Below are positions 384-28,309 of a stretch of DNA of 33,315 nucleotides, in pieces. The notes below the pieces were generated by a model. The model was not told the origin of the DNA. It was given only the letters and a program-made list of their open reading frames with translations, and searched no databases. Within the stretch, counting starts at the first letter, position 1. Every line of letters begins with the position of its first letter. A program made the position numbers and the translations under genes. Source of the stretch: a virus; IMG/VR virus record IMGVR_UViG_3300049032_000027, positions 1 through 33,315 of that record, one strand, 5' to 3'.

Positions 384-1036
384 AGTATCCTATTTTACTA
401 CCCTATGTCCATACGCAAGACGACGGCAAAGAATTAAAATATTGTCTTAGAAGCCTGGAGAATATTAAAAACTGGAATGGTAATTTATATATGATAGGAG
501 ATTTGCCTAGCTGGATTAATAAATCCGAAATAAAGCATGTGATTCCCTCTAAGAGAATGACAAATCCTTACTTGGATGTAGCAAATAAAATCTATGAATG
601 TTTCATAAATCCAGAACTTCCCGATAATTTTATTTTCATGAATGATGATATTTACATCACAGAACCTATATCGGTATCGGCTTATAATTCTGGAAATATA
701 CCAGATGTTATTACAGGAATGCACAAATCTTCTCTGTACAGAACAAAGATATGGTTACGAAAAAATGGGTATAACACTTTGAATTATGATACCCATACAC
801 CTATGGTTATTAACAAAGAAAAGTGGCTTAAAATTTACGAAGTAAACAAGTCGAACCAACAATTTATGCAGTGGCGTTCACTATATGGAAATATTAACGG
901 TATTGAATCTGAATTCATGACTGATAAAAAGACTCGAACTAATAAGTTAATGGAAGGTAAAATAATTTCCACGTTATTTTATACGGACGAGTTGAAGAAG
1001 ATGTTCCCTATAGAAAGTAGATTTAAATGCGTATAG
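380..1036 (+). CDS. Stealth CR2-like sugar-phosphotransferase (putative)
   Basis: DDGKELKYCLRSLENI...LYMIGDLPSWIN...FIFMNDDIYI resembles the Stealth CR2 pattern (ELRYSLRSL ... P.WL ... F.Y.NDD). Its start overlaps the upstream stop. Confidence 0.5.
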   Translation: MKYPILLPYVHTQDDGKELKYCLRSLENIKNWNGNLYMIGDLPSWINKSEIKHVIPSKRMTNPYLDVANKIYECFINPELPDNFIFMNDDIYITEPISVSAYNSGNIPDVITGMHKSSLYRTKIWLRKNGYNTLNYDTHTPMVINKEKWLKIYEVNKSNQQFMQWRSLYGNINGIESEFMTDKKTRTNKLMEGKIISTLFYTDELKKMFPIESRFKCV

Positions 1037-1962
1037 CAATTTATGGAAACTTCTCTGTTCCCTATTGTTCAGAAGTTCATTATGCGAACGTACTTTCTAA
1101 AATGGGGCACGAAGTTATAAGACTTCAGGAAAATACAGTGCGCACTAATGCAGCCCTTAGAGTAGGATTACAGTCAAATGTGTTCGTATGGATACACTCT
1201 CATGGATTCATGAACAGAGGGACTTTATCTATGAAGCAAGTTATTCAATCGTTAAAGAATGCTAATATACCAACCGTTGCGTACCATCTCGATCTATACA
1301 TGGGATTAGACAGATGGAAAGAATACGAAAACTCAGACTATTTCAAAGTAGAGCACTTTTTCACAGTGGATAAACTAATGGCAGATTGGTTCAATGAAAA
1401 TACCCAGGTAAAAGGACATTTCTTGCCTGCTGGAGTCTACGATGACGAGGTAATAGCTCTGGAACCACAACGAGTAGACTATGAGGTAGTATTTGTTGGT
1501 GCTAAAAACTACCATAATGATTGGCCTTACCGACCTCAACTTATAGCTTTTCTACGAGACACCTATAAAGACAAATTCTTATTAGTAGGAAGAGATGGAA
1601 TCGGAACAAAACGAGGTTTAGAATTAAACCAAATTTACTCAAATGCAAAAATTGCTATTGGGGATACATTAAATATAGGCTTTAACTACCCTTACTACTC
1701 ATCAGATAGACTATTTGAATCTATAGGCCGTGGAGCTTTTACAATTTACCCACGGATAAAAGGACTCGAAGATTACTACGAAGACGGAAAAGAAATCGTG
1801 TTTTATGAGCATGGAAACCTAGAAGACTTGAAGTACAAAATAGACTACTACCTCACTCACGATGATGAACGTGAAAAAATAAGAAAAGCTGGATTTGAAA
1901 GAACAAAAAAAGAACACCTATATTCTATGAGGTGGGAAGAAATACTGGATAAAGTATGTTAG
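1027..1962 (+). CDS. CgeB-like / GT1-type glycosyltransferase (putative)
   Basis: The C-terminal RLFESIGRGAFTIY...EDGKEIVFYEHGNLEDLKYKIDYYLTHDDEREKIRKAGFERTKKEHLYSMRWEEIL resembles the Glyco_trans_1_2/CgeB C-terminal domain. Confidence 0.55.
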   Translation: MRIAIYGNFSVPYCSEVHYANVLSKMGHEVIRLQENTVRTNAALRVGLQSNVFVWIHSHGFMNRGTLSMKQVIQSLKNANIPTVAYHLDLYMGLDRWKEYENSDYFKVEHFFTVDKLMADWFNENTQVKGHFLPAGVYDDEVIALEPQRVDYEVVFVGAKNYHNDWPYRPQLIAFLRDTYKDKFLLVGRDGIGTKRGLELNQIYSNAKIAIGDTLNIGFNYPYYSSDRLFESIGRGAFTIYPRIKGLEDYYEDGKEIVFYEHGNLEDLKYKIDYYLTHDDEREKIRKAGFERTKKEHLYSMRWEEILDKVC

Positions 1963-2612
1963 ATATTATCACCAGAGAAAATTCGCCAAGCGACCAGAAG
2001 ATAGTCGATGAAATATTCAAAGAGAACGTTTATCGTTTACATGATTATATGTACGAGGACAAGGCAATATTTTTGGATATAGGGGCAAACATCGGAGTAT
2101 TCACTTTATACGCCTTAGAGCGTGCGTACGTTGCCAATAAGAGGATTTGCGTGTATGCGATAGAACCTGAACCTCATAATTTAAACATGTTAAAAAAGAA
2201 TCTTATAAAAAATTCACACCTTCTAGAGAATGATAGCCAAGTTTTTATCTTAGAGTTAGCAGTTGGAGATAGGGAGGACATCGTCACGATTGATAATAAC
2301 CATGGTGGCTCAAGAATAGGGAAAGGAAAAACAAAAGTATCGATGACCACTCTCGATAAAATCCTCAAAATGTACAAAATAGACAAAGTTGACTTCATGA
2401 AAATGGATATAGAAGGGAGTGAAATACCCTCTCTACTAGCAGCCTCCGATGAGACAATCGACAAAATACATTTCTCCGCAATTGAATTTGATGAACAGAA
2501 TGGACTAGATAAATTTTCAAAAGTTATAAATAGATTTGCTCGTAAATGTTCTATTTCCACTTTGGGAGTTCCGTCACGAGGATGTTATTTATATAGTGAA
2601 AGGCACATATGA
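1956..2612 (+). CDS. FkbM-family SAM-dependent methyltransferase
   Basis: FLDIGANIGVFTLYA (SAM-binding G-loop), IEPEPHNLNMLKKNL and FMKMDIEGSE are the typical FkbM/Methyltransf_21 motifs. Confidence 0.8.
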   Translation: MLDIITRENSPSDQKIVDEIFKENVYRLHDYMYEDKAIFLDIGANIGVFTLYALERAYVANKRICVYAIEPEPHNLNMLKKNLIKNSHLLENDSQVFILELAVGDREDIVTIDNNHGGSRIGKGKTKVSMTTLDKILKMYKIDKVDFMKMDIEGSEIPSLLAASDETIDKIHFSAIEFDEQNGLDKFSKVINRFARKCSISTLGVPSRGCYLYSERHI

Positions 2613-3586
2613 GAATAGGATTATTAACGAGACGAGATAATTCTGGTTTAGGATACCAAACGAAAGCACTTTATGAACTGCTAAAACCTACGAGGGTTTT
2701 ATGTATCGACAGCACTCCATTTAATGGACACTCTCAAAATCTCAATTGGTACAAAGATGCAGACTACTTACAGATAACAAACGGATTCCCAACCGATCAT
2801 GATATAGACTTATTTCTAAGAGAATTAGATATTCTTATAACCTGTGAAATACCTTACAACTACACTTTATTCTCACTAGCAAAAGAACGAGGAATAAAAA
2901 CGGTTCTACAGCCAAATGCAGAATTTAACCAGCATTTCTATGGTAAAACACTCCCAAAACCAGATGCCTTTTTCTTACCGAGTAAATGGTATGAGCAAGA
3001 AACAAAAGAATTAGGTATACCAACCTACTATTGTCCACCTCCAACATTCAAAGAACAAAAAAGAAACATAACTAAAGAACAAGGAAAATTAAGAGTCCTC
3101 CATATTGGTGGCAAGAAAGCCTTTCTGGATAGGAATGGAACTGATGATGTTAGTAAAATTAATCTACCAGACGTAGAAATAACCATCTCCCAGCAAGTCA
3201 TGAGCGAGGAAGATAACAATATGGACTTGTATAAGGGAGACTATGATATCGTACTTATCCCAAGAAAGTATGGAGGTTTATGTTTACCAATGAGAGAGTC
3301 TTTAGCCTTTGGGTATCCCGTTATAATGCCGCATATACCTCCAAATAACGATCTATTACCAAAAGAATGGCTATCATCACCAAGTAGAAGAACACAACGA
3401 ATGATGAAACGTCTTATAAATGTGTATGAAAATGATATACAAAGTATAGTAAAAAGACTTGAATACTTCAGAGACATGACAAACGAAGAATACCTAAAAC
3501 AAGTAGAAAAAGCGTATACTATAAATAGACAGATAGAAAGCGATATAAAGTGGGAAGAATATCTAAAGGAGATAGTAGATGAGTAG
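2609..3586 (+). CDS. GT-B fold glycosyltransferase (putative)
   Basis: The N-terminus MRIGLLTRRDNSGLGYQTKAL and the C-terminal GGLCLPMRESLAFGYPVIMP are like the GT4 E-x7-E region. It sits in an operon with the other sugar enzymes. Confidence 0.5.
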   Translation: MRIGLLTRRDNSGLGYQTKALYELLKPTRVLCIDSTPFNGHSQNLNWYKDADYLQITNGFPTDHDIDLFLRELDILITCEIPYNYTLFSLAKERGIKTVLQPNAEFNQHFYGKTLPKPDAFFLPSKWYEQETKELGIPTYYCPPPTFKEQKRNITKEQGKLRVLHIGGKKAFLDRNGTDDVSKINLPDVEITISQQVMSEEDNNMDLYKGDYDIVLIPRKYGGLCLPMRESLAFGYPVIMPHIPPNNDLLPKEWLSSPSRRTQRMMKRLINVYENDIQSIVKRLEYFRDMTNEEYLKQVEKAYTINRQIESDIKWEEYLKEIVDE

Positions 3587-8299: not shown

Positions 8300-10192
8300 A
8301 TGGATAAAAATAAATTCTGGAAATTCCAAAACTCTGTAGAGAGTAATGGACAAGAGCTTATTTTAGAAGGCCCAATTGCAAGCGAGTCATGGTGGGGAGA
8401 TGAGGTTACGCCTCAAGAGTTCCGAGAAGAACTCAAGAACCACACAAGTGACAAGCTAACCGTCGTACTAAACAGTGGTGGCGGTGACGTATTCGCAGGA
8501 CTCTCTATCTATAACGCTCTAAGAGAATTGGATGCTGAGGTTACCATTCGTGTTGACGGACTAGCCGCCTCGATAGCCTCTATCATTGCTATGGCTGGGG
8601 ATAAAGTGATTATGTCACCTGGAAGCTTGATGATGATTCATCGCCCTTCAGTATTCGCAGCTGGTAATGTAGACGACTTAGATAAAGCCAAAGATTTACT
8701 CCTAAAGATTGAAGAATCGATTACTCCAATCTATACAGAGAAAACCGGCTTGTCTGGTGAGAAGATCGCAGAGATGCTAGAAGCAGAGACATGGATGAGT
8801 GCTGAAGAAGCAGTTGAACTAGGATTCGCTGATGAAGTTATCAAGACTGAAAAAGCAAGCCTGAAGGCAACGATCCAAAATGCCCTTAATGGCAATTTCG
8901 CCTATAGCATGGAAGCAACAAAACAATCACTAGAAAGTTTTGCTGAGAAAGTACTCGAAAGCGAGAAGGAGGTAGAAAGTGTGGTTGAACCTACTGAAAC
9001 CCAAGAACCTGTTTCCACTGAACCCTCAGATGAAGCGGAGCAAACAAAAACCGAAGAACCAACAGAAGAAACTAAAGTAACTAACGAAACAAAGGAAACT
9101 AAAGAGATGGAAGAGACTAAAGCAATTGCTCAGTCACAAGTTATCGAGCCTTCAAACCAGGCTCCAGTTGAAGTAAAACCAACAGTTAAAGACTACCTTA
9201 AGACTACGGCGTCAATGGAAGCATTCGCACGTATTCTTGAGGACAACGCTGGTAAAACTTCAGAAGATGTAAAGAACGCATGGAAAGAACACCTTTCTGT
9301 AAAAATGGGTGTTACTAACCCAGAAGTATTCTTGCCAGAGGCCCTCATCACTGAGATTGAGGATGCCTTCAAGGCAGGTGGTGAAATCTGGAACCGTGTT
9401 ACTAAGACTGGTGCTGATGTGTTCCGTGCAGCATGGGACGCGGAAGACGATGTATCGAGTGAAGATGGTCGTGGACGTGGTTACAACCGTGCCACTGCTG
9501 AAGAGAAGGCTGAGCAGGTGCTTACGTTCGATGAGCGTGTACTTCGACCACAGTTTATTTACAAGTACATTACTCTTAACAAGGAAGATGTTAAGAACCA
9601 ACGGAGCACAGGTGCTCTCGTACGTTACGTATTGAGCGAACTTCCACGACGTATTGTCCGCGAAGTCGAGCGTGCAATCGTTATCGGTGATGGTCGTGCT
9701 CCAGGTAGCGCATACAAGATTACATCTTTCGTTGCTGTTAAGGCAGATGCAACCGCTAACAACGCTTTCGCAACAACTTACACCCCAGTACCAGGTGAAA
9801 CAACCTATGCAACTCTCGTAAAGGCCAAAGACCTTATCGAGGCGGATGGTTCACTCGTACTGATTGCTAAAAAGGGTTACATGAGCGGACTTCTCCTTGA
9901 AGAGAACGCTAACGGTGGATTCCTATTCGCCCCGGGTACTAACCTTGGCGCAGTCCTAGGATTTGAAGCTGTTATCGAACCAGACTGGTTGACTGATGCT
10001 ACAGACCCAGACAACGATGCTTACATCGTATCTCTGAGCAAGTACAAGACAGTTGGTGACAACTCTATCGAAAGCTTTACGAACTTCACCCTTAAGACCA
10101 ACAAGCAAGAATACTTGCAGGAAATTTGGGCTGGTGGTGCTCTTACCGCACGTAAAGCAGCTGTAGCAATCGTCGCGTCGGTAGCGTCTTAA
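8300..10192 (+). CDS. ClpP-like (S14) prohead protease fused through an acidic linker to an HK97-fold major capsid protein
   Basis: N-terminal VLNSGGGDVFAGLSIYNALR...VDGLAASIASIIAMAGDKVIMSPGSLMMIHRPS is ClpP-like. A T/E/P-rich linker follows (aa ~225-270). The C-terminal ~350 aa are capsid-like. Confidence 0.8.
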   Translation: MDKNKFWKFQNSVESNGQELILEGPIASESWWGDEVTPQEFREELKNHTSDKLTVVLNSGGGDVFAGLSIYNALRELDAEVTIRVDGLAASIASIIAMAGDKVIMSPGSLMMIHRPSVFAAGNVDDLDKAKDLLLKIEESITPIYTEKTGLSGEKIAEMLEAETWMSAEEAVELGFADEVIKTEKASLKATIQNALNGNFAYSMEATKQSLESFAEKVLESEKEVESVVEPTETQEPVSTEPSDEAEQTKTEEPTEETKVTNETKETKEMEETKAIAQSQVIEPSNQAPVEVKPTVKDYLKTTASMEAFARILEDNAGKTSEDVKNAWKEHLSVKMGVTNPEVFLPEALITEIEDAFKAGGEIWNRVTKTGADVFRAAWDAEDDVSSEDGRGRGYNRATAEEKAEQVLTFDERVLRPQFIYKYITLNKEDVKNQRSTGALVRYVLSELPRRIVREVERAIVIGDGRAPGSAYKITSFVAVKADATANNAFATTYTPVPGETTYATLVKAKDLIEADGSLVLIAKKGYMSGLLLEENANGGFLFAPGTNLGAVLGFEAVIEPDWLTDATDPDNDAYIVSLSKYKTVGDNSIESFTNFTLKTNKQEYLQEIWAGGALTARKAAVAIVASVAS

Positions 10193-20710: not shown

Positions 20711-21367
20711 ATGAGTAGTCTACAACAATTCAGAGAATGGTCTATATCACAGGGGCAAGTTAGCAACCCAACAACTCAAGTTGTAAACCAATATCCTGGA
20801 CAGTGCGTTTCACTTGTACAGCAGTATCTTGATAGAGTATTCGGAATTCCTTACGCTCCTAGGGGGAACGCCAAAGACTTTGTACCACCTACTTTTAGTA
20901 GAGTCTCGGGAGGTCTTCTTCCAGGTGACATAATCCGCTATGGGAAAAACTATGGTGGGGGATACGGTCACATCGGAATTATTGATGACGATGGAAAGTT
21001 CCTTGATCAAAACGGTACTGTACCACTACGTGTAGGACGTAGGGACCAACCGTTTAATGGCATTGAGAGTGTTTGGCGACCAACAAAAGCCCTCCAAGTA
21101 AAAACTCCGAGCGATCAACGTCGGACAGCGAATGGAATAGCTACTGTAATCACCATGGCATTGAATGTGAGAAGTGAACCCTCAACTTCAGCATCCGTCG
21201 TAGCTACTTACAAACGGGGTGATAGATTTACGTATGATAGTTACATAATTGCTAACGGGTTCGTATGGCTTAGTTACATTGGTAATAGTGGAAACCGACG
21301 TTATGTGGCCGAGGGTCCATATGACGGCAACCGTAACAACATATATGTAACAGGAGGAATAAGTTAA
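20711..21367 (+). CDS. Endolysin: CHAP amidase/peptidase domain plus SH3b cell-wall-binding domain
   Basis: YPGQCVSLVQQYL (catalytic Cys), GYGHIGII (His), and C-terminal NVRSEPSTSASVVATYKRGDRFTYDSYIIANGFVWLSY (SH3b). Confidence 0.85.
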   Translation: MSSLQQFREWSISQGQVSNPTTQVVNQYPGQCVSLVQQYLDRVFGIPYAPRGNAKDFVPPTFSRVSGGLLPGDIIRYGKNYGGGYGHIGIIDDDGKFLDQNGTVPLRVGRRDQPFNGIESVWRPTKALQVKTPSDQRRTANGIATVITMALNVRSEPSTSASVVATYKRGDRFTYDSYIIANGFVWLSYIGNSGNRRYVAEGPYDGNRNNIYVTGGIS

Positions 21368-22308: not shown

Positions 22309-22755
22309 ATGAAATTTGATAAAGGTAGAACGGTAACGTGGTTATTACTACTCTTTATTTTAATTGTCCTATTCAATATTTATACTTTGATAAAAGAACG
22401 AGATCAAATATACAAAAGTCTTGAGAGTACTATATTTAACAAAGTAATAAGCAATATTCCAGAGCCAAAAAATGGGATAGATGGCGATACGCCAGTTAAG
22501 GGTATAGATTACTTTGATGGCAGAGACGGACGTGATGGTGAGAACGGAAAAGACGGTCAAGATGGCCGTGACGGGGTAGACGGAGCACAGGGCCCTCAAG
22601 GAATTCAGGGAGAAAAGGGAGAACCAGGAGCAAATGGACTCACTCCCCAGCTTAGATGCAACAAAGAGAAGAACAGATGGGAAGTTAGGTATAGTGATGA
22701 CCAAAACTGGGAACTACTGAACGGTGAAAAAGTAAGGTGTACAAACGGACTATGA
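22309..22755 (+). CDS. Membrane-anchored collagen-like repeat protein
   Basis: N-terminal TM segment WLLLLFILIVLFNIYTLI, then Gly-X-Y repeats GRDGRDGENGKDGQDGRDGVDGAQGPQGIQGEKGEPGANG. Confidence 0.7.
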   Translation: MKFDKGRTVTWLLLLFILIVLFNIYTLIKERDQIYKSLESTIFNKVISNIPEPKNGIDGDTPVKGIDYFDGRDGRDGENGKDGQDGRDGVDGAQGPQGIQGEKGEPGANGLTPQLRCNKEKNRWEVRYSDDQNWELLNGEKVRCTNGL

Positions 22756-22756
22756 T

Positions 22757-22900
22757 ATGGAATCGCCGAACGAAATACTTACACCATGGTATGACGGTGA
22801 AACTATAGAATGGATAACACCACCAGAATATTATTCTAGGTTATTAGGAAATATAGCTTGTACTGAACTCGACATTATTATCGACTCTCCAACAGAATAG
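22757..22900 (+). CDS. Small hypothetical protein (47 aa, below the ORF-track cutoff)
   Basis: ATG 2 nt after the upstream stop: MESPNEILTPWYDGETIEW... Confidence 0.35.
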   Translation: MESPNEILTPWYDGETIEWITPPEYYSRLLGNIACTELDIIIDSPTE

Positions 22901-22936
22901 TAATAGGTGTATAATTAAAGTGTAACAAGGAGGAAT

Positions 22937-23083
22937 ATGAGTTTACTTTTAGCTTTAGTTTGTGGAGTACTAGCATACTTCGTCGCATCACTAGTTTTTA
23001 ACCAGGTAATTTCAGTTCTAATCGGAGTAGTTGTAGCATTGTCTGTTGCATTCGATTGGAGAACTGGAAGTTGGCGGAGATAA
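22937..23083 (+). CDS. Small two-TM membrane protein (48 aa, below the ORF-track cutoff)
   Basis: AAGGAGG is 5 nt before the ATG. Sequence MSLLLALVCGVLAYFVASLVFNQVISVLIGVVVALSVAFDWRTGSWRR. TGTATAAT lies at 22907-22914 upstream. Confidence 0.5.
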   Translation: MSLLLALVCGVLAYFVASLVFNQVISVLIGVVVALSVAFDWRTGSWRR

Positions 23084-23131
23084 ATAGTATAATAAAAGCA
23101 CAGTAGTTCTTGTTTCGCCAAAACATTAAAT

Positions 23132-23155
23132 AAGCCCCAGAAATGGGGTTTGTTT
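23132..23155. terminator. Hairpin terminator, probably bidirectional
   Basis: AAGCCCCA-gaaa-TGGGGTTT followed by GTTT on the + strand. On the - strand the same stem is followed by CTTATTTAATGTTTT. Confidence 0.7.
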
Positions 23156-23748
23156 AATTAAATGGGTATATTTACTAGTTTATAACTAAAGGTCCTGTAT
23201 GATGCTTTAAATCGTTAATTACGGGTACTTATTCTATCTCTAATGAATAGTTCTAAGTAAATCATTATCCTTTTCATGAAACTACGCTCAATCCTGGCTA
23301 GTTCAATGATATCTAGTATGTCTTTTTCATCCCGTTTCAAGCGGTGTGAAGTTCAACTGGTCATTACTCCATTATAACAGAAACAATTAGACCATCTCCC
23401 CTACTACTTTAGGAGCTAAACAATTCCAAACCCTTAACATCTACTCTCTATCGCTATCAATGCTCACGTACTTCTACGGCTTGCCAGTTGGTTTCTGTCC
23501 CAATAACGATATTAGTCAGTATTAGTACGGAGTAAGAGAGACGAATCGAATATTTAATCAAGGCTCGTCACACCTGTCCGTACTAAGTTTCGGCACGTTC
23601 ACTTCATTTTTCGTCCAGACCATTTTCGCCACTTTGCGAAAATGGTCATTGGGAGGGGCTACTAGTGCTCGGTGCAGTTTTGATTGAAGACAGGTAAGGG
23701 GTAGTGAGTCCAGGATCGTGCAGGAACACGATTCAGCTACTCACTCAC

Positions 23749-23810
23749 GGAGTCGGACTCGAACCGACGACCTCCCATATTGGGTGCTCTACCGACTGAG
23801 CTATCCCCTC
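23749..23810 (-). ncRNA. tRNA-like element: canonical D arm and T arm, truncated anticodon arm, no local acceptor stem
   Basis: The minus strand reads GAGGGGA-TA-GCTC-AGTCGGTA-GAGC-A-CCCAATATGGG-AGGTC-GTCGG-TTCGAGT-CCGAC-TCCGTGA. The anticodon arm is 11 nt instead of 17, and the 3' side pairs with only 3 of the 7 acceptor positions. Confidence 0.6.
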
Positions 23811-24010
23811 TAACCCCATATCCATCCTCAATCCTTGAAGACATGGTGCTAGTAGCAAAGACATGACCTACGTTTAGCCCGACGTATCAAGGCAGGCATA
23901 TGGGAGTCGTCTTACTACCCACTAACTTTCTAACCAATAGGTGGACGTGCTACTTATTACACCAGCTCTTCACGTAGGAGCATTACTACCAGCACAACTA
24001 TCTTCAAGTG

Positions 24011-24040
24011 TTGATTATAGACACTAGAGAGAGGGAGATA
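24011..24040 (-). promoter_or_regulatory. Promoter/operator-like element (minus): TATCTCCCTCTCTCTAGTGTCTATAATCAA
   Basis: Matches 25/30 ungapped positions of the + strand element at 24462-24491. Contains a perfect TATAAT and points into the ncRNA region. Confidence 0.5.
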
Positions 24041-24053
24041 ATTATTTATTTAA

Positions 24054-24440
24054 CTATGCTTTTACTCTATGTTCGGCAAACTCAAGGAGATTAAAATAAA
24101 TCTCAAATTGCCATTGACCTAATTCACCTGTATCGTCGTCAAAATGGTCAAACCACGCCTTAACAACGAACATTCCAGTAGATGATGATAAGTCTCTGTA
24201 GTTTCCTTTTGGAACGTTACGTATTATTGACTTGCCGACACTATTTACCAGTTCAGTAATGGTGTCTTGTAATTTGTACACACTAGGTATTCTATCTCCG
24301 TAATCGTATCCGAGTGACTGAAATAAGGGAGCTGCTTTGATAGCGGCTGCTTCAGTGTATTCGTTTACATAAACGCTTTCCCACCCAAGTGCGTCACAAA
24401 CTATTTCTAAATCGTTCGTAATCTTATCATGAACATCCAT
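24054..24440 (-). CDS. Acidic hypothetical protein (128 aa)
   Basis: GGAG is 5 nt upstream of the ATG on the minus strand. It is one of three minus-strand CDSs called here (with 11874-12086 and 19069-19611) and is flanked by the inverted 30-nt elements. No recognisable motif. Confidence 0.6.
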   Translation of the reverse strand: MDVHDKITNDLEIVCDALGWESVYVNEYTEAAAIKAAPLFQSLGYDYGDRIPSVYKLQDTITELVNSVGKSIIRNVPKGNYRDLSSSTGMFVVKAWFDHFDDDTGELGQWQFEIYFNLLEFAEHRVKA

Positions 24441-24461
24441 ATGATTCTCCTATCATATTTG

Positions 24462-24491
24462 TATCCCTCTCTCACTAGTATCTATAATCGA
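24462..24491 (+). promoter_or_regulatory. Promoter/operator-like element (plus): TATCCCTCTCTCACTAGTATCTATAATCGA
   Basis: Inverted copy of 24011-24040; TATAAT at 24483-24488 pointing rightwards. Confidence 0.5.
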
Positions 24492-24494
24492 TAG

Positions 24495-24606
24495 ACTGCT
24501 AAACTATCTTATGTTAAGGTATTTGCTACTTAAAACAATAACTGCTATACTATGAGTATAAGACTCATGGCTGAGCAACTGCACCCTATACGGGTGCTTT
24601 TTGTTT
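24495..24606 (+). ncRNA. Possible short terminated transcript (about 50-110 nt)
   Basis: Lies between TATAAT 24483-24488 (or TGCTATACT 24541-24549) and the terminator at 24580-24606. No ORF. Contains hairpins GATAG/CTATC and ATGAGT-ataag-ACTCAT. Confidence 0.3.
24580..24606 (+). terminator. Rho-independent terminator
   Basis: GCACCC-tatac-GGGTGC followed by TTTTTGTTTT. Confidence 0.75.
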
Positions 24607-24960
24607 TAACTAACCCCTATTCGACTCATGGCTTAGAAGAATCAAATAGTTATACCAATAATACCACAGAAGAAACAAAAGTACACCCATTAACATACAA
24701 AAGTGGAGGGTAGAATACTTTGTATAGGGTATACGATTGACTAACATAAGTCAGAATAGGGGGTATAAGGTTCATGACGAAATCACGTCACTATATTTAG
24801 TATAGCATATTTTGAACAAAACAAAAAGGACCCGTAGTGTGAGGCCCTTTAAGGATTGATGTCAAGCAATGAAAGAAAACTTTATAGGGACGGCGAAGCC
24901 GTAAAGTAATCCATCAATCATTTTTATAATAGCATATAATCATAATCTTTGTAAATTACC

Positions 24961-24989
24961 TTGATATAACTACAAGCATGTGCTATATT
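24961..24989 (+). promoter_or_regulatory. Early-type promoter TTGATA-17-TATATT (TG-extended), spacer AAGCATGTGC
   Basis: Read directly. Followed by the conserved leader CAAGTAATGAAAGG and the ATG at 25020. Confidence 0.7.
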
Positions 24990-25019
24990 AAATACACAAG
25001 CAAGTAATGAAAGGAAAAT

Positions 25020-25571
25020 ATGGAAGAATTAGATAAAAAAGAACTTGATGTAATCGATAAAGCTATTCAGAAACATGGCTCACTCACAGAATCAACGTAT
25101 AAACAGATACTTGGATTTAATCCACCACGATCAATCGTCAAACAACACAAGTTTGGAAAGTTTGATTATCTCCCAATCACTGCAATTGAACGAATGCTTG
25201 ACGGACTATTTGAGTCTTGGAGTGTAGAAGTTCTGCGAGAAGGTGTAGCGGTTAATGGATTCTACGTCGTCGTTAAATTGAAGGCTAAAATACCTTATTC
25301 GGATAAAGTATTAGTATCAGATGGAATCGGATTCGCTGAATTTCAAACTATTAAAGACGCCTCACCTACTGATTTTAGTAAATTATCTCAAGCTGCGGGC
25401 GTTATGGCGGTTCCAAAAGCACGTACAGAGGCTATTAAGAACGCCGCTAAGTCATTTGGTAATTTATTTGGTAGAAACCTAACTAGAGATGATGACCAAT
25501 GGGAGAGCGAGGAAGAAGTTGTAAGTAAAGCACGAACAAAGATCGCTAATGCACTCAAAGGGGATAAATAA
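25020..25571 (+). CDS. Rad52/Sak-like single-strand annealing protein
   Basis: DYLPITAIERMLDGLF..W ... AVPKARTEAIKNAAKSFGNLFGRNL resembles the Rad52-family core (TDA.KRA...FG..FG..L). Confidence 0.6.
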   Translation: MEELDKKELDVIDKAIQKHGSLTESTYKQILGFNPPRSIVKQHKFGKFDYLPITAIERMLDGLFESWSVEVLREGVAVNGFYVVVKLKAKIPYSDKVLVSDGIGFAEFQTIKDASPTDFSKLSQAAGVMAVPKARTEAIKNAAKSFGNLFGRNLTRDDDQWESEEEVVSKARTKIANALKGDK

Positions 25572-27088: not shown

Positions 27089-27373
27089 ATGAAAAATAGA
27101 AAATGGGCTACTACTGAAGAAGAAAATGGTTGGTTAGTACGTGACGAAAAAGGAAGACCAAGACAATTTATCGGAAGTATAAAAGGTAGATATGGTATAT
27201 GGATGAGAGAATATAGAACGCGTATTCCTGTTAAGGTGTACGAAGAAATAACTACTGACTATGCAATACATGCTGAAGTATGTGCCTGGTGTGAAAATAC
27301 AGATATTGAGTGGGTCGATAATAATGGAAACAATACACCATACTTAATTTCATCGGTAAACAATGGCAAATAA
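27089..27373 (+). CDS. Hypothetical protein
   Basis: I prefer ATG 27089 (TGATATG junction with the upstream stop) to the track start at 27026, which overlaps the previous gene by 62 nt. Confidence 0.45.
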   Translation: MKNRKWATTEEENGWLVRDEKGRPRQFIGSIKGRYGIWMREYRTRIPVKVYEEITTDYAIHAEVCAWCENTDIEWVDNNGNNTPYLISSVNNGK

Positions 27374-27743
27374 AACACTCATTAAAAAACTAGATATCGT
27401 ATTCTCAAAGTATATACGGTTAAGAGACTCTAACAATGGAGTATTTTTGTGTTGCAGCTGTACTCAATATAAACCCTACGAACAAGCAGACGCTGGACAC
27501 TTTATCAATCGCCGCTGGATGGCTACAAGATGGCGAGAAGACAACGTCCATGCACAATGCAGATCATGTAACAGGTTTGATGAAGGAAATGCCGTAGGGT
27601 ATACGATGTTTATGATAAATAAATATGGTAAAGAGCATGTCGAGTATCTGCAGGCTATTAAAAACGGCGGCTATAAGTACAAAGACTACGAAATACAAGT
27701 GTTAATTGAAGAATATAAACAAAAACTATTGCAATTTAAGTAA
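27363..27743 (+). CDS. NinG/Rap-like recombination endonuclease
   Basis: LDIVFSKYIRLRD...CCSC...ADAGHFINRRWMATRWREDNVHAQCRSCNRFDEGN matches the lambda NinG-family pattern. Confidence 0.75.
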   Translation: MANKTLIKKLDIVFSKYIRLRDSNNGVFLCCSCTQYKPYEQADAGHFINRRWMATRWREDNVHAQCRSCNRFDEGNAVGYTMFMINKYGKEHVEYLQAIKNGGYKYKDYEIQVLIEEYKQKLLQFK

Positions 27744-27757
27744 GCATATGCTATATT
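27729..27757 (+). promoter_or_regulatory. Early-type promoter TTGCAA-17-TATATT, spacer AAGCATATGC
   Basis: Read directly. Followed by the conserved leader CCAAGCAATGAAAGG. Confidence 0.7.
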
Positions 27758-27764
27758 AAGAGTA

Positions 27765-28110
27765 CATCCAAGCAATGAAAGGATGAAAGCGACGGGATAA
27801 AGATAGACCCAAGCCAAAAACTCTGACAAGGCAGTCGCTTACAAAATATAAACTCGGTAGCCATTCACCCAGTCGAAAGCCAGTAGAATACGGCTCAGAC
27901 ACTCACGAGGAACTTAGGCTGGATGATTGGCTACTGAGATTAACAATTGAGTGTAGTAGCACAAGTAATAATAGTCCGACGGAGAGTATTACTTCGGGGA
28001 GTTTCTACGGGAACCACCACTCTTAGCAAGTAGTGTGCACACAAAAGCGGAGCAAACAAATACGTATTATTACTGGTACCATACACTCAATTACAAAAAA
28101 AAGGAGACAT
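27765..28110 (+). ncRNA. Structured RNA of about 340 nt (stand-alone ncRNA or long cis-regulatory leader)
   Basis: Nested helices 27853-27862/27929-27938 (one G-U, valid on + only), 27945-27955/28082-28092 and 27964-27973/28065-28074. No ORF of 60 aa or more. Ends about 10 nt before the GGAG of the next gene. Confidence 0.6.
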
Positions 28111-28114
28111 AACA

Positions 28115-28309
28115 ATGTCAAAAACATCAACAAACAAAACACCAAAAACAGTAGAGATTAAACTACTAATTCCTTACGCAATTATTGCAATATTAATCGT
28201 TGCAATTGCAGGACTCATCACAGGATGGTTCGTACACAACAATTACACTCAATCAATGCAGCAGGAATACAATAACGGTGTTGCATCGGTAAAAACATCA
28301 CAGAAGTAA
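28115..28309 (+). CDS. Small membrane-anchor protein, probably the N-terminal part of a split transglycosylase
   Basis: GGAG RBS and TM segment LLIPYAIIAILIVAIAGLITGWFV. The reading frame of the downstream SLT domain is open from 28276. Confidence 0.5.
   Translation: MSKTSTNKTPKTVEIKLLIPYAIIAILIVAIAGLITGWFVHNNYTQSMQQEYNNGVASVKTSQK

Follow-up and report, generated by a model that had tools for sequence, protein, structure and literature searches.

What fills the stretch of about 0.9 kb without open reading frames (ORFs) that lies between the lysis genes and the early region of the phage genome IMGVR_UViG_3300049032_000027 (33,315 nucleotides, all of which were analysed and are here called the window)? 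An earlier note, made from the sequence alone, proposed a single giant ornate RNA on the minus strand, either GOLLD- or ROOL-like or of a new class. We conclude that the region is probably an array of at least three autonomous, locally closed RNA cassettes (A, B, and D), accompanied by a spacer hairpin, a tail, and a terminator, and perhaps processed by way of tRNA mimicry. The GOLLD/ROOL label is wrong, the RNA biology is real and unusual, and one of the cassettes founds an apparently undescribed family.

The region is noncoding, as the earlier note had claimed. No ORF of 45 amino acids (aa) or more is present on either strand of 23130-24050, and the longest, of 41 aa, has a TTG start and no Shine-Dalgarno sequence. 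As a whole, the region folds better than its shuffles (z = -3.7), and so do cassettes A and B taken singly (table 1). The minus strand is strongly structured from 24008 to 23392, a span that includes a tRNA-like element. Conversely, the 3' 270 nt (23400-23130) have no folding advantage over shuffles (z = -0.67), and the structured part is therefore ∼615 nt rather than 0.9 kb. Better-than-shuffle folding is seen for both strands. At two positions of the inner helix of cassette A, however, a G-U pair is kept in 26 of 27 and 23 of 27 sequences; such pairs would be A-C mismatches on the opposite strand, which fixes the minus strand as the one earlier proposed. Each domain folds alike alone and within the full-length fold, and no long-range helix joining the domains has comparative support.

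Cassette A is a member of a widespread phage RNA family outside Rfam 15, here called the CCA-stem (type A) family. Its consensus comprises a leader-trailer helix of ∼10 bp, a 3x2 internal loop (GUW/CA), a near-invariant helix of 13 bp (GUGCUGGUAGUAA/UUGCUACUAGCAC) that carries G-U and U-G wobbles and whose 3' strand ends in N-CCA, and an insert. In the window, cassette A equals the consensus at all 26 inner-helix positions. Both helices that the earlier note placed in this first domain are real and, as a pair, backed by covariation, but their lengths were wrong: the outer one has 10 bp, not 8, and the inner one 13. Covariation was evaluated on 27 distinct arm-pair sequences, with 500 shuffles and slid partners as controls. 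In this set, 98.9% of cells are paired, and both sides have changed at 8 of the 10 outer pairs. The covariation score is 0.321 versus 0.117 for shuffled sequences, none of the 500 reaching it, and slid controls stay at or below 0.067. The G, the U, and the CA of the internal loop are invariant in this alignment, and the closing helix is near-invariant across phages of very different G+C content.

A related contig, L008, has an ORF-free stretch of 1.9 kb with helices of the form GUGCURGUAG...CUACUAGYAY; the same 3' arm is present elsewhere in the genomes of L001 and L005. The relatives that share the Rad52-like protein (L004-L009) have no nucleotide similarity to the window in the array region. 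Scanning IMG/VR with a 16-mer of the 3' arm, TTGCTACTAGCACCAT, yielded 72 loci, 33 of which have a complementary 5' arm within 600 nt. Scans with the 5' arm only added 19 IMG/VR loci, ∼16 of them true cassettes, and, among contigs of metagenome-assembled genomes (MAGs), six with a clear 3' partner and two with a variant or truncated arm. The motif is thus found in ∼50 IMG/VR and MAG contigs, several of which belong to Candidatus Saccharibacteria. Among copies ascertained on the 5' arm only, 13 of 16 have GCAC-CA-U. N-CCA is likewise retained in nonascertained variants with other inner helices, namely, the second cassettes of L092 and L048, those of L090 and L119, and one on the plus strand of the window. 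In one variant cassette, C-G replaces U-A at the -1/73 pair, the position that pairs with the discriminator. The canonical cassette finds no real match among the cultured phages of INPHARED.

What the stem encloses is hypervariable. Inserts range from 29 to 272 nt, and 49 of 54 distinct inserts have no blastn match to any other; the window insert matches none of the other 53. Canonical cassettes lie 160-230 nt 3' of NinG or DUF1064 genes, behind a promoter and co-oriented with their neighbors. A NinG or DUF1064 gene is often upstream of cassettes but not universally so, and the downstream genes are not conserved. Neither Rfam 15 nor the searched literature describes the motif; its presence in an automated IMG/VR catalogue was unchecked (PMC10690425). 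That catalogue holds ∼8,500 candidate structured RNAs, many of them unnamed tRNA-like RNAs of 29-151 nt (PMC10690425), and the variable insert would make the cassette hard for its pipeline to capture.

The constant stem of cassette A looks like a tRNA acceptor/T minihelix, with ∼12 bp from G23993 to the junction, a discriminator (A23847), a CCA (23846-23844), and a U at -1. Mimicry of a host tRNA acceptor was considered and rejected: tRNA-Thr and tRNA-Tyr, whose genes adjoin the L119 array, lack the GCUGGUA acceptor sequence. Elsewhere in the window, the spacer sequence GCACUAGUAGC (23653-23663, minus strand) could pair over 8 bp with GCUACUAG of the cassette A 3' arm (23856-23849); it could be an orphan remnant of a 5' arm or an alternative or intermolecular pairing partner.

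Cassette B holds the tRNA-like module that the earlier note had pointed out. Its closing helix of ∼19 bp (12 bp, a 1x1 loop, 2 bp, a second 1x1 loop, and 5 bp with three G-U pairs) encloses the tRNA-like body and a hairpin 3' of it. The body matches RF00005 over model positions 5-66, above the gathering score of 29 (table 1), with canonical D and T arms. At the anticodon position it has a 4-bp stem and a 3-nt loop (CCCA-AUA-UGGG) where the model expects 9 nt, and only an acceptor stub of 3 bp pairs (GGA/UCC), its ends continuing into the junction and the closing helix. The body thus scores as a tRNA cloverleaf with D and T arms, but has neither a 5-bp stem with a 7-nt anticodon loop nor a free-ended acceptor of 7 bp, and ARAGORN calls no tRNA or tmRNA. 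INPHARED matches of the region are only ordinary tRNAs in mycobacteriophage tRNA arrays. The closing-helix layout recurs with different sequences in L008 (three copies), L007, L097, and L203.

Cassette D is a conserved structured RNA. It is 72% identical to L097 3163-3342, and RNAalifold on four sequences (the window, L097, L203, and L202) predicts 48 pairs, with compensatory changes in 15. The helix UUAGUACGG/CCGUACUAA (23586-23578/23530-23522), which the earlier note had listed, is part of this consensus and is backed by its covariation. Five of the six helices on that list are present in the minimum free energy (MFE) folds. The helix ACAGAAAC/GUUUCUGU (23498-23491/23384-23377), however, has no counterpart in L097, L203, or L202 and lies outside the consensus fold. 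Gaps of 1-2 nt in the alignment of cassette D homologs argue against coding. The perfect 12-bp hairpin between B and D was also tried as a search handle and discarded, its exact matches in L002 and L003 being chance occurrences in unrelated coding sequence of high GC content.

The domains recur independently of one another, in other combinations and orders, in L008, L097, L203, L202, and L119. The near-identical L097 and L203 share closing helices around different inserts. A class-II tRNA-like insert in which the anticodon arm is replaced is found under type-A closers (L005, L084, and L086), under type-B closers (L008), and under perfect closers (L119); in L107, it is held by a short acceptor-like stem of its own. 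Hardly any genuine tRNA was found in the 44 related loci scanned. Arrays of relatives lie directly behind good sigma-70 promoters. The minus-strand array of the window, like those of L097 and L202, has no downstream gene and converges on genes of the opposite strand.

Three observations on these contigs stand apart. In L097 (2882-3141, plus) and L203 (3920-4144, plus), the same promoter, linkers, and closers surround unrelated inserts in two adjacent cassettes, which looks like cassette replacement. L119 carries, at 4731-3790 (minus), an array of ∼1 kb with six modules, each with a perfect closing helix of 12-23 bp; it is part of a 147-kb Candidatus Saccharibacteria chromosomal contig, lies just 3' of tRNA-Thr, tRNA-Tyr, and two housekeeping genes (holB and one for a pseudouridine synthase), and is itself followed by small phage-like ORFs. 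Last, an identical 21-mer, CAACGUUUUAGGCUAUCGUAA, is found in ORF-free regions of L001 (7320-7340, minus), L007 (4943-4963, minus), and L008 (5407-5427, minus), where it adjoins a stem-closed module (GUUAUAGA.../...UCUAUAAC); the window does not contain it, even with up to three mismatches permitted.

At the 3' side of the array, a terminator scan called the hairpin that had been proposed to close the region. At the 5' side, the TATAAT hexamer is present, but the sigma-70 scan called no promoter there because a -35 element is absent. The hexamer overlaps the A/U-rich linker AAUCAACA that precedes cassette A (UAUAAUCAACA), and this linker resembles the (C)AUUAACA linkers found 5' of the same cassette type in many other loci. 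TATAAT may be a -10 box or merely a piece of an A/U-rich linker, and transcription of the array may start upstream, jointly with the 128-aa ORF. The 3' tail contains TGTTATAAT (23379-23371), an extended -10-like sequence from which a short transcript of its own might begin. Matches of the array to the phage's own genome, as antisense targets, are at chance level only.

The window has a second noncoding array, on the plus strand 3' of the NinG-like gene. Its variant CCA-stem cassette reads AUUGAGUGUA-GUA-GCACAAGUAAUAAUA...UAUUAUUACUGGUAC-CA-UACACUCAAU, and it lies where other phages have their canonical cassettes. This array also has a promoter-like sequence, a leader with GGGAUAAAGAUAGACCCAAGCC in common with L090, and a module closed by 10 bp (CUCGGUAGCC/GGCUACUGAG). 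The variant cassette lies directly 5' of a small membrane-protein gene that starts at 28115.

Table 1. Coordinates of the two arrays, their parts, and neighboring genes in the window.
Feature	Position	Strand	Basis or remark
TATAAT hexamer	24014..24019	-	Read from sequence; no promoter called by sigma-70 scan
Cassette A, CCA-stem (type A) member	23834..24008	-	z = -5.24
Cassette A outer helix, 10 bp	24008-23999 / 23843-23834	-	10/10 pair, including one U-G
Cassette A internal loop, GUU / CA	23998-23996 / 23845-23844	-	
Cassette A inner helix, 13 bp, GUGCUGGUAGUAA/UUGCUACUAGCAC	23995-23983 / 23858-23846	-	
Cassette A insert (cargo), 124 nt	23982-23859	-	
Cassette A A-CCA	23847-23844	-	
Cassette B	23682..23833	-	z = -3.08
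tRNA-like body	23749..23806	-	RF00005, 38.6 bits, E = 4e-6
Hairpin 3' of tRNA-like body, AGUGAGU/ACUCACU around AUCGUG-uuccug-CACGAU	23703..23745	-	MFE and centroid folds
Perfect 12-bp hairpin in B-D spacer, GACCAUUUUCGC-aaagug-GCGAAAAUGGUC	23618..23647	-	MFE fold
Cassette D, ∼200 nt, conserved structured RNA	23392..23592	-	Includes helix 23586-23578 / 23530-23522
A/T-rich 3' tail, no detectable structure	23149..23391	-	z = -0.67; no homologs found
Intrinsic-terminator-like hairpin CCCCAUUUCUGGGG with U-rich tail	23135..23148	-	Terminator scan
Plus-strand noncoding array	27745-28095	+	3' of NinG-like gene
Variant CCA-stem cassette	27946..28091	+	z = -2.90
CHAP+SH3_5 endolysin	20711-21367		Pfam/PHROGs domain scan
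128-aa ORF	24440-24054	-	
Rad52-like annealing protein	25020-25571		Pfam/PHROGs domain scan
NinG-like protein	27363-27743	+	Pfam

If the region is a cassette array, it would be transcribed as one or two units, from which host nucleases of rRNA and tRNA processing would cut the cassettes at leader-trailer helices and A/U-rich linkers. RNase III could act on the helices, RNase E or RNase Y on the linkers, and RNase P at the bond from U23994 to G23993; trimming from the 3' end would stop at the CCA (A23844). The products would be small, stable RNAs exposing an end or elbow like that of a tRNA. They could engage tRNA-handling factors as decoys or sponges, or borrow the tRNA machinery only for their own maturation and stability, with the insert carrying the specific activity.

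Several points weigh against this reading. We infer transcript ends and processing entirely. The CCA of the precursor is predicted to be partly paired with the leader, so that RNase P would meet a less than ideal substrate. The conserved CA might rather serve as a bulge recognized by a protein or as a site for RNase III, at which a cut would leave a 2-nt 3' overhang, and the helix from CCA to the tRNA-like body has 12-13 bp, not 7, so that enzymes measuring tRNA geometry may reject it. Scans relied on exact matches to one arm, which partly explains the invariant look of the inner helix, and no protein partner is conserved within 5 kb of the motif loci. The type-B closing-helix family was picked by eye and is supporting evidence, not an independent test; cassette B itself has no homolog in the loci collected. 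A more elaborate version, to which we give a low probability, is an arrangement of scaffold and cargo: the A-CCA minihelix mimic would recruit universal tRNA factors of the host, for example RNase P, the CCA-adding enzyme, and perhaps a synthetase or EF-Tu, and the inserts would be decoys or aptamers that related phages rapidly exchange or diversify. The opponents in the implied arms race would be defence or translation factors of the host, possibly Saccharibacteria or other members of the candidate phyla radiation (CPR). If true, such arrays would represent a new, all-RNA kind of phage locus for counter-defence or host takeover.

A single giant RNA, of a new GOLLD/ROOL-like class and acting, perhaps multimerising, as one molecule of 0.6-0.9 kb, would account for the contiguous structured stretch with one possible promoter and one terminator, for the fold score of the whole region, and for a tRNA-like module in a phage locus, given that GOLLD and ROOL occur near tRNA islands (PMC12286853). 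We nevertheless think it quite improbable. With permissive filters over 22700-24500, GOLLD, ROOL, OLE, HEARO, raiA, and tmRNA have no Rfam match at E<=10, and a scan of the whole window at gathering thresholds finds in the region only the tRNA element and no GOLLD; in this respect, the earlier suggestion of an RNA outside the catalogued families has held up. In the permissive scan, matches other than tRNA (SpF41, mir-320, and IS009) are at chance level, far under their gathering scores. Nor does any known Rfam family appear in nine canonical-motif loci searched at E<=1 or in six related arrays searched at E<=0.5. Every domain is closed by its own helix and keeps its fold in isolation, in other phages the domains are separated and reordered and their inserts swapped, and the 3' third lacks structure, none of which fits a single ornate unit of 0.9 kb. 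A cis-acting leader, in which boxA-like linkers followed by hairpins serve processive antitermination or late-gene control in the manner of rrn or lambda nut, is also unlikely. Canonical cassettes do lie between a promoter, 160-230 nt 3' of NinG/DUF1064, and the next genes, and we take the (C)AUUAACAA linkers to resemble part of the Escherichia coli rrn boxA, UGCUCUUUAACAA. However, the boxA core GCUCUU is absent, the genes 3' of canonical cassettes are not conserved, and the minus-strand array of the window runs convergently into a terminator with no gene to control, an arrangement shared by L097 and L202. Hypervariable inserts are moreover not what one would expect if the element bound RNA polymerase or Nus factors.

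That the tRNA-like pieces are pseudogenes of a decaying tRNA island and the rest neutral spacer is very unlikely. The truncated anticodon arm of the Rfam tRNA match and the silence of ARAGORN are what decay would produce, and tRNA clusters are frequent in phages at comparable positions. Yet compensatory changes keep the closing helices and cassette D intact across dozens of divergent phages, bodies with a replaced or truncated anticodon arm recur in several lineages, and bona fide tRNAs are nearly absent from the 44 related loci. The least credible alternatives are an element acting at the DNA level (an origin, attP, or recombination hairpins) and unannotated small proteins. Inverted repeats, a position between divergent and convergent gene modules, and a change in the GC-skew trend near 23100 would suit a DNA element. 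Against it, only one strand keeps the G-U wobbles, a search found no iterons, direct-repeat families, or origin, and there is no integrase among the ORFs scanned against Pfam or PHROGs. Indels of 1-2 nt among homologs and the lack of any ORF above 41 aa speak against small proteins. The array of autonomous cassettes is thus the reading that we retain.

The genome that carries the array is siphophage-like, and INPHARED searches found no close cultured relative. A Pfam scan assigned its five ORFs of at least 450 aa to a portal protein, a ClpP-capsid fusion, a tape measure protein, a terminase, and one unknown; a PD-(D/E)XK exonuclease was also identified. The array is flanked by plus-strand lysis-side genes, which end at ∼23083, and by the minus-strand 128-aa ORF. 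G+C content is ∼0.52 at 23600-23900 versus ∼0.37 in the flanks. Synteny yielded no further arrays: the L001 homolog of the 128-aa ORF has no equivalent array downstream, and a query with a lysis-side ORF found no relatives. The portal and NinG-like proteins of the window are homologous to proteins of motif-bearing loci, including Saccharibacteria MAG contigs, and Saccharibacteria may be the host of this phage.

Other features of the genome were observed in passing. A pair of glycosyltransferase-like ORFs occupies its left end (1027-3586, plus), with a Glyco_trans_1_2 match at 1027-1962 and a weak Glycos_transf_1 match at 2609-3586. The fusion of ClpP protease and major capsid protein is a 630-aa ORF (8300-10192, plus), and the lysis-side genes include one for a 148-aa collagen-repeat protein with an N-terminal membrane segment (22309-22755, plus). 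A gap of 580 nt without ORFs (24440-25020) separates the 128-aa ORF from the Rad52-like gene. It has sites resembling divergent promoters and three hairpins resembling terminators (24850-24825, minus; 24581-24597 and 24775-24790, plus), and may encode further short RNAs.

If these interpretations are correct, a conserved RNA family in ∼50 uncultivated phage and MAG contigs has been missed by Rfam. Its design, a near-invariant, CCA-ended stem of 13 bp around an insert without similarity between copies, is unusual. The family offers a testable handle on how phages might use tRNA-processing or tRNA-binding machinery through RNAs unable to decode, and it points to phages of poorly studied hosts, the Candidatus Saccharibacteria carriers. 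The short, defined stem makes in vitro testing of processing, CCA status, aminoacylation, and binding partners possible without culture of the host. A more general lesson is that a long, ORF-free, helix-rich region of a phage need not be a giant RNA of the GOLLD/ROOL type.

Among known systems, the cassettes most invite comparison with RNAs that mimic or accompany tRNAs. In their long helices formed by flanking sequence and their A/U-rich linkers, they are like the leader-trailer systems of pre-tRNA and pre-rRNA, as they are in a polycistronic arrangement and an encoded N-CCA with U at -1. Stable RNAs other than tRNAs also occur in phage tRNA clusters, such as the species 1 and 2 RNAs of T4. 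Unlike in pre-tRNA and pre-rRNA, the enclosed RNA is hypervariable and usually neither tRNA nor rRNA. TMERs of murine gammaherpesvirus 68 consist of a nondecoding tRNA-like body followed by a hairpin, and their tRNA part recruits host tRNA-processing enzymes. The layout of cassette B is like theirs; unlike cassette B, TMERs belong to a eukaryotic virus, are Pol III transcripts, and are cut by RNase Z, and there is no sequence relationship. Cassette A is also distinct from tmRNA, its G-U lying at what would be 4:69 where the tmRNA acceptor has G3-U70. Its 6-bp core GCUGGU/ACUAGC is presumably also the core of the Ro-binding helix of vertebrate Y RNAs.

Bacterial and phage Y RNAs (YrlA/Yrn1, bound by Rsr/Ro60) likewise join a terminal stem that is conserved to an effector domain that varies or resembles tRNA, occur as several differing copies side by side, and mimic tRNA without offering a functional free anticodon. 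TruB, DusA, and RNase P all act on YrlA, whose order is circularly permuted: Rsr-binding stem, (V), T arm, closed acceptor stem-loop, and D arm (PMC4201824). In contrast, cassette B keeps the normal order of D arm, anticodon position, and T arm, and cassette A encodes a CCA end, which YrlA lacks. The GNCGAAN0-1G motif, expected near the 5' end, was not seen by eye, the sole GNCGAA (GACGAA, ∼23614-23609) lying in the spacer and followed by AAAUG. A same-strand Rsr (TROVE) gene would be expected within ∼4 kb of a Y RNA, and Pfam finds no TROVE/Rsr protein among the five window ORFs of at least 450 aa. Topology, motif, and the lack of an Rsr match led us to reject a YrlA or Y RNA identity. Finally, the locus resembles GOLLD (>800 nt) and ROOL as a structured noncoding RNA of phages or prophages with no assigned function. 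Both often lie near tRNA islands, and the linker region of GOLLD can carry tRNAs (PMC12286853). Unlike them, the window locus has no conserved core that spans the region and is modular, built from independently closed, exchangeable cassettes.

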